DNA from: Ruminococcus sp.
Lineage (GTDB): Bacteria; Bacillota; Clostridia; Oscillospirales; Ruminococcaceae
Assembly: GCA_029060305.1 (NCBI GenBank)
Contig: JAIDUG010000054.1
Coordinates: forward strand, 38,612-102,611
Direction of reading: 5' to 3'
Length of the DNA: 64,000 nt
The notes under the pieces were generated by a model. It worked only from the letters and a program-made list of their open reading frames with translations, was not told the DNA's origin and ran no database searches. Shown here one piece after another: positions 41,349 through 49,063 of the stretch. Position numbers and translations under genes: made by a program. Position 1 is the stretch's first letter, and each line of letters opens with the position of its first letter.

Positions 41349-44300
41349 TCAGACTATCGGATTAATCGGAGTTGTGTTATGTTCAACGTATGATTCGTTT
41401 TTAACAACCTTTACGTGACTATAACAGTCCATACCAGTACCGGCAGGAATAAGTTTACCGATAATAACGTTTTCTTTGAGACCGAGAAGTCTGTCGCTTT
41501 TTCCTCTGATAGCAGCGTCTGTGAGAGCCTTTGTTGTTTCCTGGAATGATGCGGCTGCCATAAAGCTGTCGGAGTTGGAAGAAGCCTTTGTGATACCCTG
41601 AAGTACGGGACTTGTCTGAACAAGCTGGAGGTCATATTCACCTGCATCGATACGAGCCTGAATTTCACTGTTGATAATTTCGATTTCTTTTCTGTCAATG
41701 AAATTGCCGGGCAGGAGATAACTGCTTCCTGTTTCCTCAACCTTGATTTTGCGGAGCATTTGTCTTACGATAACTTCAATATGTTTGTCGTTGATGTCAA
41801 CACCCTGCAAACGATAAACTTTCTGTACTTCTTCGATAATGTAGTTCTGTACAGCCTGAGTGCCGAGTATATTAAGAATATCGGTCGGGTAACTGTTACC
41901 TTCGGTAAGACGAGTACCTTTTTCAATCTTGTCACCCTCAGAAACTCTTACTTTGAGATTGTAAGGAATCATATAGTTTTCAGTTTCGCCTGTTTCGGAG
42001 TTGGTGACGATAATATTCTGAGTTGTTTTTATTTCTTCAATGTGGATTGTACCGGAAATTCTTGAAAGGATAGCCGCACCCTTAGGACGTCTGCTTTCAA
42101 AAAGTTCTTCAACACGTGGGAGACCCTGTGTAATATCTTCAGCGTCAGCGGAAGCAACACCACCGGTATGGAAAGTTCTCATAGTAAGCTGTGTACCAGG
42201 TTCACCAATTGACTGAGCGGCGATAACACCTACAGCTTCACCGACTGCAACAATATTATTATTTGCGAGGTTAGCACCATAGCACTTAGCACAAACACCT
42301 GTTCTTGCTCTGCATTCGAGAACGGAGCGAATTTTGATTTTTTCAACACCAGCATCAATAATTTTGTTTGCGTCAGCATCTGTGATAAGTTTATTGCGTG
42401 AAACGATAAGTTCGCCGGATTCGTCCCTGAGGTCTTCCGAAAGGTATCTGCCTACAAGACGTTCTGCAAAAGGTTCAACTATTTCGTTTCCGTTTCTGAT
42501 TTCGTAAACTTCTATACCCTCAGTAGTTCCGCAGTCTTCCTCACGGATAATAACGTCCTGTGAAACGTCAACGAGACGACGTGTAAGATAACCTGAGTCA
42601 GCGGTTCGGAGAGCCGTATCAGCAAGACCTTTTCTTGCACCTCTCGAAGCTATGAAGTATTCGAGGATATTAAGACCCTCACGGTAATTTGCACGGATAG
42701 GGATTTCAATAACCGTACCGGAAGTATTAGCGATAAGTCCACGCATTCCGGCAAGCTGACGAATCTGTGAAATAGAACCTCTCGCACCTGAGTCAGCCAT
42801 CATCCATATAGGATTGTAGCGGTCAAAATTCTCTTTAAGTTTCTTTGTAACTTCGTCAGTCGTGTTAGTCCAGAGTGAGATAATTTTCTTTGTTTTTTCC
42901 TGAGCCGAAATATAACCGTACTCATATTCACTGGTAATCTGTTCAACTTCTGCATCAGCGTTTGCGAGTATGGCTTTCTTTTCAGGAGGAATTGAAGCGT
43001 CACATACTGCAACGGTAAGTGCTGCCCTTGTTGAATACTTGTAACCAAGAGACTTTATTCTGTCGAGAACTTCAGAAGTTGTTGTTGTGCCGTGAATTTT
43101 TATACAACGTTCAATAATATCGGAAAGCTGTTTCTTGCCGACAAGGAACGCAATTTCAAGGTCAAACTGTTTGTCGGAATTTGTTCTGTCAACATATCCG
43201 AGATTCTGCGGAATATTTTCATTGAAGATAAGTCTTCCGACAGTAGCGTCGATAATTTTTGAAACTTTCTTGTCGCCGATGTCCTTTGTGATTTTAACCT
43301 TGATATTTGCGTGAAGTGATACGTCGTGTTCATTGTAAGCCATGAGGGCTTCGTTGACATCACGGAATACTTTTCCCTCACCAATGTCACCAGGTTTATC
43401 CATAGTAAGATAGTATGAGCCAAGCACCATATCCTGTGACGGTACAGCAACTGGTTTACCGTCCGAGGGCTTGAGGAGGTTATTTGCGGCGAGCATGAGG
43501 AAACGTGCCTCTGCCTGAGCCTCTGCGGATAATGGAAGATGTACAGCCATCTGGTCGCCGTCAAAGTCGGCATTAAATGCGGAACATACAAGGGGGTGGA
43601 GTTTTATTGCACGACCCTCAACGAGAATCGGTTCAAAAGCCTGAATGCCGAGACGGTGAAGTGTAGGCGCACGGTTAAGCATAACTGGGTGGTCTTTGAT
43701 TACATCTTCAAGAGCGTCCCATACTTTGTTGTCAGCACGGTCAATGAGTTTTCTTGCACTCTTTATATTTGCTATTGCTTTTTTGTCAACAAGTCTTTTC
43801 AGTACAAACGGTTTGAAGAGTTCGAGAGCCATTTCTTTAGGAAGTCCGCACTGATACATTTTAAGCTCAGGACCTACAACGATAACAGAACGTCCGGAGT
43901 AGTCAACACGTTTACCGAGAAGATTCTGACGGAAACGTCCCTGTTTACCTTTAAGCATATCGGAAAGTGACTTCAAAGCCCTGTTGTTAGGACCTGTAAC
44001 AGGTCTGCCGTGTCTGCCGTTGTCAATAAGAGCGTCAACAGCTTCCTGTAACATTCTTTTTTCGTTTCTTACAATGATGTCGGGAGCATCGAGTTCAAGC
44101 ATTCTTTTGAGACGGTTATTTCTGTTTATAACACGTCTGTAGAGATCGTTAAGGTCGGAAGTCGCATAACGTCCGCCGTCAAGCATAATCATCGGGCGGA
44201 GGTCGGGCGGAATTACCGGAACAGCATCAAGAATCATCCACTCCGGCTTGTTTCCGGAAAGACGGAAAGCCTCAATAATCTGAAGTCTTTTAAGAATCTT

Positions 44301-45068
44301 TACTTTTTTCTGACCTGACGGAAGTCCTATAAGTTCAGTTTTGAGGTCGTTGGCAACAAGCTCAATATTGTTTTTCCAGTCAATATCAACAAGTCCGGCG
44401 AATTTCATACATTCTTCACAGGTACATTCTGTAGGGTTGTTTGTACAGTGGACTTTTTTCGTGCCGAGATAGATTTTTCCCATTTCAACGAGACGGTTTT
44501 TCAGGGAATCATATCTTTTCGGGTCGTATTCGTTAAGGAGTTTCTTTATAGCTTCCGCACCCATTTCAGCTTTGAAATCGTCTCCGTACTTTTCGAGATA
44601 GGAGAGATATTCTTTTTCTGAAAGCATTTGTTTTTTTACAAGTTCCGTGCTTCCGGGATCGGTAACTATATATTTTGTGAAGTAAAGGACTTCTTCAAGT
44701 CTTTTCTGTGAAATTTCGAGTACCTGTCCGATTCTTGACGGTGTGCCTTTGAAGTACCATATATGTGAGACAGGTGCGGCGAGTTCAATGTGTCCCATTC
44801 TTTCACGACGTACTCTTGCCCTTGTGACTTCAACACCGCAACGGTCGCACACTTTTCCTTTAAAACGGATTTTCTTGAATTTACCGCAGTGACATTCCCA
44901 GTCCTTTGTAGGTCCGAATATTCTTTCACAGAAAAGACCGTCACGTTCAGGTTTCTGGGTTCTGTAGTTAATGGTTTCAGGTCTTTCAACGATTCCGTAA
45001 GACCAGCTTCTGATTTGTTCAGGTGAAGCGAGACCGATTTTTATTGATTCAAAAGTATTAAATTCCAA
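41349..45068 (-). CDS. rpoC: DNA-directed RNA polymerase beta' subunit
   Basis: [34 protein letters not shown]; TTG start with AGGAGG RBS. Confidence 0.99.
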
Positions 45069-45151: not shown

Positions 45152-48100
45152 TTATTCCTCATTGGAGGAGTCGTCAATGTCAAAACTGTCAAAAAGGTCA
45201 TTGTCGTCCTCAATAACAAGTTCGTCATCATCTTCGTCGTCGAATGCAAATTCATCGTTGGTGTAATCATCAGAATCATCTTCTTCGCTGATTTCATCGT
45301 CGTCTAAATTGAAGCCTTCACCTCTTATGTCGTCATCAGAATAGTCTGTATTGTCGGCAGTTTTTTCCTCAGAGAATGAAGTATCACGGGACTGAATCGG
45401 GTCATCGTCGTCAAAATTCTGTTTCAGGTCTATTTCGTCCTGATTAATGTCAAGCACCTTAACGTCAAGACAAAGGGACTGCATTTCCTTTATAAGAACC
45501 TTGAATGCTTCCGGAATGCCAGGAGACGGAACATTCTGCCCCTTTACAATAGCTTCGTAAGTGTTTACACGACCCTGAGTGTCGTCGGATTTTACGGTGA
45601 GGATTTCCTGAAGTGTGTATGCTGCACCGTATGCTTCCAAAGCCCATACTTCCATTTCACCGAAACGTTGACCGCCGAATTGTGCTTTACCACCGAGAGG
45701 CTGTTGCGTTACGAGAGCGTAAGGACCTACAGAACGTGCGTGAATCTTATCGTCAACGAGGTGGTGAAGTTTGAGGTAGTACATATAACCGACAGTTACA
45801 CGGTTGTCAAATTTTTCGCCTGTTCTTCCGTCATAAAGTGTAAACTTACCGTCTTCGTTCATTTCGAGGGCTTTCGGGTTTATAACTTTGTCCATAGCGT
45901 TGATTTCAAACATATCATCACGATGATTTTTATTTTTTTCGTTAGCTTCACGGAAACAAGCACGAATATCATCTTCGTGTGCGCCGTCGAAAACAGGTGT
46001 CATAATGTGCCAGCCGAGAGCCTTACAAGCCATACCGAGATGTACTTCGAGAACCTGACCGATATTCATACGTGAGGGAACGCCGAGAGGATTCAGCACA
46101 ATGTCAAGCGGAGTACCGTCGGGGAGGAAAGGCATATCTTCTTCCGGAAGAATACGTGAAACAACACCCTTGTTACCGTGACGACCAGCCATTTTGTCGC
46201 CGACAGTAATTTTTCTTTTCTGTGCAATGTAGCAGATTACACGCATATTAACGCCTGCACTGAGTTCGTCGCAGTTTTCCCTTGTGAATACCTTTACGTC
46301 CACAATAACGCCTGACGCACCGTGCGGAACTTTGAGGGAATTGTCACGTACTTCACGGGCTTTTTCACCGAAAATAGCACGGAGCAGACGTTCTTCAGCA
46401 GTCAGCTCAGTTTCGCCCTTAGGTGTGACCTTACCGACGAGAATGTCGCCGGAGTTGACTTCCGAACCGATACGGATAATACCGTTTTCATCGAGGTTTG
46501 CGAGAGCGTCGTCACCAACGTTTGGAATATCTCTTGTGATTTCCTCAGGACCGAGTTTTGTATCACGACATTCAATTTCGTATTCTTCAATATGAACAGA
46601 TGTAAACACGTCTTCACGGACAAGTCTTTCGTTGAGGAGTACAGCATCTTCGTAGTTGTAACCCTCCCACGTCATGAAACCGATAAGGGCGTTTTTACCG
46701 AGGGAAATTTCACCGTCAGCAGTAGCAGGACCGTCAGCAAGTACCTGACCTTTTTTGACTTCCTCACCGACTGAGACGATAGGTTTCTGATTTACGCAAG
46801 TACCTTGGTTGGAACGTTTAAACTTTGTGAGTTCGTATTTGTGTTCAATGCCGGTACTGTCAATCATATGGATTCTGTTAGCATCAACATATGAAATTCT
46901 TCCGTCATATTCAGCAACGATACAAACACCGGAGTCAACAGCAGCCTTGTATTCCATACCAGTACCAACGAAAGGTCTTTCTGTTCTAAGAAGCGGTACG
47001 GCTTGTTTCTGCATATTTGAACCCATTAACGCACGATTTGCGTCGTCGTTTTCAAGGAAAGGAATCATTGAAGTTGCAACGGAAACAACCATTTTCGGTG
47101 AAACGTCCATAAAATCAACTTTTTCACGTTCACACTCAAGAATCTGGTCACGGTAACGTGCATTGACACGTGGACGTTTGAGTTTTCCGTCTTCTGTAAG
47201 CGGTTCGTTAGCCTGAGCAACGATATAATTGTCTTCAACATCGGCTGTCATATAGATAACTTCATTTGTAACAATGCCTGTTTCCTTGTCAACACGTCTG
47301 TAAGGAGCTTCAATAAATCCGTAGTCGTTTATTCTTGCGAAAGTTGCAAGGTAGGAAATAAGTCCGATGTTAGGACCTTCAGGGGTTTCGATAGGACACA
47401 TTCTTCCGTAGTGACTGTAGTGAACGTCACGCACTTCAAATCCGGCTCTGTCTCTTGAGAGACCACCAGGACCAAGTGCTGATAAACGTCTTTTGTGAGT
47501 AAGTTCAGAAAGAGGGTTGTTCTGGTCCATAAACTGAGAAAGAGGTGAGGAACAGAAAAATTCTTTCATAGCGGAAGAAATAGGTCTGATATTTATAAGA
47601 GACTGAGGAGTAAGTGTGCTTGTATCCTGAGTCTGAATATTCATTCTTTCACGGATACTGCGTTCCATTCTTGCGTAACCGATTCTGAATTGATTCTGAA
47701 GAAGTTCGCCTACTGAACGGATACGCCTGTTTCCGAGGTGGTCAATATCGTCAACAGTGCCGACACCTTCGCAGAGGTTGAGGAAGTAGCTGATAGTTGC
47801 GAAAATATCGTCAAGAATAATATGCTTCGGAACGAGTTCGTCGGCACGTTTTTTTACGTTTTCTTCGATTTCGTCATCGTCAGCGGAAGTTTCGAGAATT
47901 TCACGGAGAACCTTGAAAGAAACTTTTTCATTTACGCCGTATTTTTCAGCGTCGAAATTGATATATTGCTTTATATCAACCATACCGTTACCGATAATCT
48001 TTGCGACTTTTTCGACCATACGGATTTCTGTTTCGTCTCTGTCGTTCTTGAAATATTCCTTTACTTCAACGTTTACGAAAGCGTGATAGACGCCAGCCTG

Positions 48101-49063
48101 TTCAATTTCGCAAGCCTTGTCGTAAGAAATTATTTCACCGGCATCAGCCATAATTTCGCCTGTCATGGGATTAATTACTGGTTCAGCAAGAGTGTGTCCG
48201 GCAAGACGAGAAGCAATGCCGAGTTTCTTGTTATACTTGTAACGTCCGAAACGGCAGAGGTCATATCTTTTTGCGTCAAAGAAAAGATTGTTAAGGTGAG
48301 TTATAGCACTTTCAACTGTAGGAGGTTCACCCGGACGGAGTTTCTTGTAAACGTCTATGAGAGCATCGGAATTATTTTTAGTGCCGTCTTTCTGAAGAAT
48401 AGTCTGTTTGAGACGGTCATCTTCACCGAACATTTTATATATTTCCTCGTCAGAGCCGATACCTAATGCTCTGATAAAAGTAGTAATCGGGATTTTTCTG
48501 TTTTTGTCGATACGTACATAGACAACATCGTTTGAGTCCATTTCGTATTCAAGCCACGCACCTCTGTTAGGGATAACTGTTGTGCTGAAAAGGTCTTTAC
48601 CGGTCTTGTCTTTTTCAAAGGCATAGTAAACACCGGGAGAACGTACAAGCTGTGAAACAATAACACGCTCCGCACCGTTTATAACGAAAGTTCCGCTGTC
48701 GGTCATGAGTGGGAAATCACCCATATAGATTTCACTTTCACTGACTGAGCCGGTTTCTTTGTTGAAAAGATTAGCAGTTGCCCTCATAGCCACCTGATAG
48801 GTAGCACCTCTGGACTTACATTCTGCGAGAGTGTATTTGGGTTCGGTATCAAATCTGTAATCCTTGAAACTGAGTACAAGATTACCGTTATAGTCAGTAA
48901 TGTCGGTCATATCACGGAAAACTTCACGGAGACCCTCTTCCCTGAACCATTTATACGAGTTCTTCTGAACTTCAATAAGGTTTGGCATTTCGAGTGGCTC
49001 AGTGATTTTACTGAAGCTCATTCTGACATTCTTTCCCAGTTGCTTAGGTGTAACATTCACCAT
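45152..49063 (-). CDS. rpoB: DNA-directed RNA polymerase beta subunit with a long acidic C-terminal tail
   Basis: [47 protein letters not shown]. Confidence 0.99.

Follow-up and report, generated by a model that had tools for sequence, protein, structure and literature searches.

The rpoC locus and its insertion

The window, that is, the whole 64,000-nucleotide stretch of DNA analyzed here, comes from a Ruminococcus sp. and carries on its minus strand the genes for the β and β′ subunits of RNA polymerase. The 1239-residue β′ subunit, RpoC, is identical to a protein found in public collections (P0004), which also hold many relatives that are 81–97% identical to it over residues 150–300 and are named Ruminococcus sp. 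or R. flavefaciens β′. The relevant features are listed below, where A1 denotes an alignment of 29 insert-bearing sequences from six genera and Eco denotes E. coli numbering.

45152..49063, minus strand: rpoB, β subunit, 1303 aa, directly upstream of rpoC; identity assigned from its size and position
41349..45068, minus strand: rpoC, RNA polymerase β′, 1239 aa, TTG start as listed; Pfam Rpb1 domains 1–5
44838..44894, minus strand: canonical N-terminal zinc-binding domain, Cys59/61/74/77 (Eco C70/72/85/88), located with P0002 and the E. coli K-12 rpoC translation
44367..44534, minus strand: lineage-specific 56-aa insertion, N179–N234, unmatched in C. difficile, B. subtilis, and E. coli β′
44508..44531, minus strand: N-terminal arm of the insertion, E180–D187 (EYDPKRYD), nearly invariant in A1
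44409..44447, minus strand: Cys cluster C208-x6-C215-x-C217-x2-C220, putative Cys4 metal site
44445–44447, 44424–44426, 44418–44420, and 44409–44411, minus strand: codons of C208, C215, C217, and C220, respectively
44367..44381, minus strand: C-terminal arm of the insertion, D230–N234 (DWKNN); W231 and N234 (W53 and N56 of the insert) invariant in A1
42282..42533, minus strand: canonical second β′ zinc site, Cys846/919/926/929, spacing 73/7/3

The insertion is located between the helix that carries the MGAEAI motif and the next conserved helix of β′, and its boundaries were set from alignments with insert-less relatives. Comparison of residues 165–293 with the chains of the PDB has shown that the block upstream of the insertion corresponds to residues 167–185 of C. 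difficile β′ (7l7b) and the downstream block to residues 184–241. The B. subtilis (6wvj) and E. coli β′ chains align in the same manner, leaving some 50 query residues with no counterpart, in agreement with an earlier note, made from the DNA sequence alone, that typical Firmicute RpoC has only a few residues at this place. In eight aligned RpoC sequences from other families, the segment ‘E-I-D-L-E’ leads straight into the conserved helix, with no insert. The insertion lengthens, in frame, a spacer that separates universally conserved segments of β′. The peptide that had been singled out in the earlier note was found at 44367–44522 on the minus strand, where it encodes RpoC residues 183–234. 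The Cys region given there as 44409–44450 matches, but the start has to be moved, as the insertion begins four residues earlier on its N-terminal side.

Distribution, origin, and selection

The insertion is a feature of Ruminococcus sensu stricto, the gut and rumen bacteria of the R. flavefaciens type, and of a few neighboring genera. It is spanned by 22 of the 22 matching genomes of the same genus, and the genomes from fifteen other families of the order (15 of 15) match only the part that follows it. Within the family, the Cys-type insert was found in 6 of the 166 genera represented in a 201-genome sample, namely the genus itself and five others, which makes it a lineage-specific feature rather than a widespread one. 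A scan of named genomes confirmed 137 species-representative genomes as carriers. The best 80 of these 137 are nearly all Ruminococcus, and they include the R. flavefaciens isolates FD-1, 007c, MA2007, ND2009, YL228, Y1, SAb67, and YAD2003. A tree of β′ sequences computed on 350 columns with the insert masked, in which many forks are unresolved, separates the RpoCs that bear the arms of the insertion from the insert-less ones with 100/99 support. When a profile of the insert was run against the order (401 genomes, 179 genera), it matched only the genome of origin and a genus with a 13-Cys form described below; elsewhere in these 401 genomes nothing convincing was retrieved, the one weak match being a 70-aa frame (E = 1.3e-3). 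Three metagenome-assembled genomes labeled Alistipes (Bacteroidota; L067, L073, and L096) also carry a Ruminococcus-type rpoC with the insert, most likely as a result of binning contamination or mislabeled records.

The insertion might be thought to be an assembly error or a frameshift artefact, or else recently acquired DNA of foreign or mobile origin, an intein remnant for example. The probability of this is negligible, and no support for it was found. An assembly artefact, about which the earlier note had cautioned, is ruled out because the same in-frame insert recurs in more than 130 independent genomes, including those of cultured R. flavefaciens strains. A foreign or mobile origin was rejected on the basis of the native GC content of the insert (0.39, vs. 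0.43 for the gene) and the absence of repeats at its junctions, and the purifying selection documented below argues in the same direction. In addition, no homologue outside RpoC was found among 1.84 billion representatives. This profile search returned five marginal matches, one truncated RpoC fragment and four repeat proteins, and no donor or independent protein family; it is silent on the distribution of the insert because members with the insert are masked in RpoC clusters built at 50% identity. Outside RpoC, similarity was found only to two TIR-like proteins, P0125 and P0126, whose repeats (‘…GWDEERYQAVKARLLEKG.IA…GRGG…’) resemble the N-terminal half of the insert (EYDPARYDTQKNRLIEMGKISLGGK). 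The E-values, approximately 3e-5 to 6e-4, are boosted by the repeats, and the resemblance is probably due to chance or to a convergent helix-turn.

Pairwise comparison gave a dN/dS of 0.11 within the insert, as against 0.04 in the 112 codons that flank it, both values being approximate because synonymous divergence is near saturation (dS of approximately 1.3–1.4). By this measure the rate of evolution of the insert is about three times that of its flanks, and the sequence comparisons indicate that it is under purifying selection while being less constrained than the core. It can be taken as practically certain that the insertion is genuine, that it is under selection, and that its Cys4 cluster is conserved.

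Cysteine patterns and the putative metal site

C208, C217, and C220 are invariant in the 29 sequences of A1, and all of them have a fourth Cys residue, at position 215 (pattern I) or 211 (pattern II). Pattern I, C-x6-C-x-C-x2-C, with C215 as the fourth ligand position, characterizes the genus and one sister genus. Pattern II, C-x2-C-x5-C-x2-C-x2-C, is found in two divergent genomes of the genus (L021 and L022) and in four other genera; it has the Cys at 211, which is usually accompanied by another at 223. One carrier of pattern II, WP_022356927.1, is encoded by a complete 2.57-Mb genome labeled Ruminococcus by NCBI. The exact spacing of pattern I is kept in 80 of the 80 carriers tabulated (the best 80 of the 137, representing 67 distinct sequences), so that four conserved Cys residues are present in 29/29 aligned sequences and in 80/80 further carriers. 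The cysteines of the H-C-x6-C-x-C-x2-C motif reported in the earlier note are thus conserved among carriers. The His of that motif is another matter: position 207 is His in only 7 of the 80 carriers, and it is therefore not a ligand. Other residues that are invariant or nearly so in A1 are E180, Y181, D182, P183, R185, Y186, D187, K190, L193, G197, K198, W231, N233, and N234.

Three Cys4 clusters, the two canonical zinc sites and that of the insert, hold 12 of the 18 Cys residues of RpoC. The E. coli counterpart of the second canonical site is C814/888/895/898, with a spacing of 74/7/3. When the 18 cysteines of the protein were placed at random, four of them fell within 13 residues in 0.75% of cases; as sequence evidence goes, the retention of the Cys pattern in every carrier examined is far stronger than this figure.

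A metal site, rather than disulfides or chance, is indicated because there are always at least four thiols and the position of the fourth ligand has moved between lineages. It is probable that the four cysteines bind a metal, which is likely to be zinc, an Fe-S center being improbable. That a fourth Cys is always present and that two of the ligands are predicted by AlphaFold2 (AF2) to lie at the N-terminus of a helix fit a Cys4 metal site, although the spacing of pattern I is not that of a textbook zinc knuckle. On the clamp of the polymerase, the most likely function of the four cysteines is thus to keep a third structural metal ion in place. Because Cys-free modules can replace the knuckle in related genera, as described in the next section, such a metal site would be dispensable for the polymerase as such.

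Exchange of the tip module in sister genera

Approximately twenty further genomes of the family have RpoC frames of approximately 1300–1400 aa in which similarity to the query starts only at the C-terminal arm. The sister genera that harbor these long RpoCs share the arms, EYDPxRYD and W.N.LE..DDLK, the W.N.L part being seen where the match to the query starts in the RpoCs with a large tip module. In L038–L043, L045, L046, L048, and L049, whose RpoCs comprise approximately 1300–1330 aa, the same arms flank a Cys-free module of approximately 110 aa, and the EYDPxRYD motif was found to precede this module in the series L038–L049. The genomes concerned are labeled ‘Oscillospiraceae bacterium’ or ‘Huintestinicola sp.’. 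L044 (G170:C11:98200-100800) has two such modules in tandem, giving an insert of approximately 290 aa and an RpoC frame of 1403 aa; therefore, the tip also grows by internal duplication.

An expanded tip with 13 Cys residues is carried on the same arms in a single genus (g97; L037 of genome G121, and L053–L055). Its motifs, …CEMCARC…CAGC…CDDC…CDCKNCPMC…, include two CxxCxxC runs, and the number of cysteines would suffice for about three metal sites. L047 (G142:C27:19800-22300) has at the same position an unrelated, acidic and helical insert of approximately 90 aa that is devoid of the shared arms. Its RpoC groups with insert-less sequences, and the site has here received an insert independently.

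Within the arm-bearing group of the β′ tree, the different tips are intermingled. One clade (97/97 support) comprises 29 Cys rows together with three that are not of the Cys type (2 B, 1 other), and another one (99/96 support) brings together the 13-Cys form and two large-module forms. The simplest reading of this tree would be that the arms were gained once and that the tip was then repeatedly exchanged. The insertion site is a hotspot of module swapping, since sister genera carry Cys-free or 13-Cys tips on the same arms.

Position on the clamp and relation to known β′ inserts

The MGAEAI motif occupies residues 180–185 in the E. coli K-12 rpoC translation, and the insertion enters at approximately Eco K190–D193, at the C-terminal end of the MGAEAI helix (Eco 180–190). 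The β′ clamp-toe, a globular protrusion of the clamp (Eco 144–179), contacts Crl and the non-conserved region (NCR) of σ70 in E. coli, and it is an insertion hotspot that hosts the inserts of Deinococcus-Thermus and Actinobacteria (10.1101/726851; PMC8113463; PMC5511352). The entry point lies 11–14 residues beyond the boundary of the clamp-toe. The clamp location proposed in the earlier note is thus upheld, and from this position the insert is inferred to be surface-exposed.

The actinobacterial and Deinococcus-Thermus inserts are designated β′i1 and β′i2, respectively, in the nomenclature of Lane and Darst (2010, as cited in PMC5511352). Positions were compared between chains with fixed offsets, residue 78 of the query fragment being equivalent to Eco 201, Msm/Mtb 277, and Tth 477. 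β′i1 of Msm (residues ~140–230) maps to Eco ~150–154, N-terminal to the MGAEAI helix, whereas the Ruminococcus insert is C-terminal to it; the latter is therefore adjacent to the known hotspot but at a different point. An insertion point shared with Thermus β′i2 or actinobacterial β′i1 was accordingly rejected on the basis of E. coli numbering.

Like β′i1 and β′i2, the insert is lineage-restricted and in frame, and it occupies a non-conserved spacer in the N-terminal part of the clamp, close to where σ docks. In both cases unrelated modules are found at one site in different lineages. The folds and taxonomic scales differ, however. β′i1 is an antiparallel helical hairpin of approximately 90 aa and β′i2 consists of five SBHM domains, whereas the 56-aa insert is a putative Cys4 knuckle, modeled as a short helix, a 22-residue loop, and another short helix; and β′i1 and β′i2 mark whole phyla, as opposed to a handful of genera for the insert. 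The canonical β′ zinc sites also offer a parallel, as Cys4 clusters of presumed structural role in the same subunit, and a CxC motif occurs both in the canonical zinc-binding domain (C59-x-C61) and in the insert (C215-x-C217). Unlike the putative site of the insert, which is found in part of one family and within an insertion, the canonical sites are universal in bacteria and belong to conserved regions.

The predicted insert recalls small zinc-binding folds such as zinc knuckles, treble clefs, and the rubredoxin-like FdhE_C, as one pair of ligands would be supplied by a loop or knuckle and the other by the first helical turn. The CxxC-x5-CxxC spacing of pattern II is a further point in common with such small Cys4 modules; that of pattern I is unusual. 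The [4Fe-4S] domain of archaeal subunit D and of its eukaryotic Rpb3-like relatives is likewise a Cys-rich, lineage-variable module that binds metal, putatively so in the case of the insert, on the RNA polymerase of anaerobes. It belongs, however, to another subunit and another domain of life and has a ferredoxin-like motif that the insert lacks, and no homology between the two was detected.

In the literature covered, outside which the catalogue of Lane and Darst (2010) itself lies, no description was found of a Cys-rich or metal-binding β′ insert or of an insertion point at approximately Eco 190, and recent surveys of insertions mention no Cys or zinc insert in β′. Lineage-specific β′ inserts are thus already known, but a Cys-rich one at approximately Eco 190 is apparently new, the primary catalogue aside.

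Predicted fold and homology searches

The AF2 model of a 216-residue fragment, obtained with a 30-sequence alignment, has pLDDT values of 80–91 over the insert. The predicted layout is a helix at approximately Y186–V195, a 22-residue loop that contains C208 and C215, a short helix starting at approximately T216–C217, and a return to the host helix. According to DSSP, the C217-x2-C220 pair of the AF2 models straddles the start of the second helix, lying partly in its first turn and partly just ahead of it. When the insert was folded alone, the same secondary structure was obtained with a mean pLDDT of 67 only, which suggests that the insert packs on host helices and is not autonomous. The modeling thus gave a confident local fold in the context of the fragment, but a moderate one for the insert alone.

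Pfam searches with the whole protein, with the insert alone, and with the alternative tip modules returned no family other than the Rpb1 domains; this holds for the 13-Cys tip, which matches no Fe-S or zinc family. The best match of the insert, FdhE_C (PF24860, rubredoxin-like), is below threshold (E = 0.02; 15.4 bits, with a cut-off of 27 bits). A profile search of the PDB with the insert gave no match, and a sequence search with the fragment recovered the flanks only. Similarly, Foldseek gave no match for the insert-only model, and with the wide model it retrieved nothing but the RNA polymerase flanks (TM of approximately 0.45). No recognizable homology of the insert to a described zinc-binding family was thus found with Pfam, Foldseek, or PDB profiles.

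Proposed role and alternative interpretations

We propose that the insert forms a mini-domain of approximately 56 residues in which a long loop joins two short helices. Four Cys residues would hold it together, two provided by the loop and two by the N-terminal end of the second helix. These would coordinate one structural metal ion, probably Zn(II), in a third Cys4 site beside the two canonical β′ zinc sites. The mini-domain would cap the turn between the MGAEAI helix and the next helix, right after the clamp-toe. The arms, EYDPxRYD and W.NN, would represent a conserved anchor, apparently gained a single time, and the tip between them would be exchangeable, in the form of the Cys knuckle, its 13-Cys expansion, or the Cys-free module of approximately 110 aa, single or duplicated. 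As a surface decoration, the mini-domain might tune how the clamp tip contacts domain 2 of σA, a lineage-specific factor, or DNA at the edge of the cleft. The metal would serve the stability of the fold rather than catalysis or sensing; a sensor is disfavored because sister genera replace the knuckle with Cys-free modules. A structural Cys4 knuckle, probably with Zn, that sits on the clamp beside the docking surface of σ domain 2 and tunes contacts there is the interpretation that we favor, with moderate confidence. The tuning role is likely by analogy with β′i1, β′i2, and the E. coli clamp-toe. Taken by itself, the question of a specific docking or tuning role versus a neutral decoration is evenly balanced.

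The Cys cluster might instead be an Fe-S or otherwise redox- or oxygen-labile center that makes clamp behavior or σ docking responsive to oxidants, an interpretation that we consider improbable. The earlier note had suggested a redox sensor or a docking site for a factor, and both suggestions are speculative. It draws on the constant presence of at least four Cys residues, with five in pattern II genera including a C-x2-C-x2-C run, on the expansion to 13 Cys with two CxxCxxC runs in one genus, and on the weak, sub-threshold match to FdhE_C. These bacteria are strictly anaerobic and contain many Fe-S proteins, and archaeal RNA polymerase subunit D carries oxygen-labile [4Fe-4S] clusters. However, the ferredoxin signature CxxCxxCxxxCP is absent from pattern I, and thus from the tabulated carriers of the genus except L021 and L022, and pattern II has CxxCxxC only; no variant, the 13-Cys one included, is matched by Fer4 or another Fe-S family of Pfam. 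The position of the fourth ligand differs between lineages, as is usual for structural Zn sites, and the two other Cys4 sites of β′ are zinc sites. The presence of a Cys-free module on the same arms in sister genera also makes an indispensable redox-sensing role unlikely. In its more specific form, where oxidation of an Fe-S center or a zinc-thiolate switch would unfold the knuckle and alter σ or factor docking or clamp dynamics, this idea is if anything less probable still.

As for the second alternative, the insert might be a tolerated, neutral surface decoration, in which the cysteines stabilize the loop with or without a metal and which has no partner or regulatory role. This would account for the free exchange, expansion, or duplication of the tip among sister genera, for the lack of an insert at this site in most genera of the family and in the aligned RpoCs of other families, for its evolution at about three times the rate of the flanks, and for the fact that no co-occurring partner was found. 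We nevertheless regard it as rather unlikely. Even with synonymous divergence near saturation, a dN/dS of 0.11 is far below neutrality, and non-Cys residues are invariant or nearly so, including E180, D187, K198, W231, N234, and the YDP.RY motif. Moreover, the insert has been kept in at least 137 species, and for inserts at the neighboring clamp-toe, roles have been demonstrated in other phyla (PMC5511352; 10.1101/726851).

Significance and search for a partner

To our knowledge, almost nothing has been reported on the RNA polymerase inserts of the Clostridia that dominate fiber degradation in the gut and rumen. In E. coli, Thermus, and mycobacteria, lineage-specific inserts alter initiation kinetics, factor dependence, and sensitivity to antibiotics or phage proteins. 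The Ruminococcus insert would provide a third metal site in a bacterial β′ subunit, at an insertion point that is previously undescribed in the literature covered and that is next to the E. coli docking surface of σ domain 2, the σ70 NCR, and Crl. As a single family mounts three or more unrelated tip modules on these arms, it amounts to a compact natural experiment in the acquisition and swapping of RNA polymerase surface modules. The insert also provides a clean molecular marker of Ruminococcus sensu stricto, and structural or inhibitor work on these polymerases must take it into account. If the site were redox-labile, it would be a polymerase-intrinsic redox sensor in strict anaerobes, and the tips of the sister genera would represent different regulatory modules plugged into one port. 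If the insert is only a structural decoration, its importance would be modest.

The search for an interacting partner, which covered co-occurrence with a tandem σ-2 frame and the length of σA, yielded none. The σA of the genome is an ordinary 360-aa protein, and σA frames of approximately 360–400 aa show no obvious split according to insert type, although such a comparison is crude. Between dnaG and rpoD, outside the window, there is a 327-aa open reading frame (G000:C56:28244-29224, plus strand; L063:945-1928). It consists of two tandem copies of σ70 regions 1.2–2, without regions 3 or 4. Among the 201 genomes of the family, it is present in this genome only, the other genomes of the genus giving matches through σA alone, and it was rejected as the partner of the insert for that reason, as it does not co-occur with it. 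In its own right, this tandem protein may be a σ-2-only decoy that binds the β′ clamp helices.
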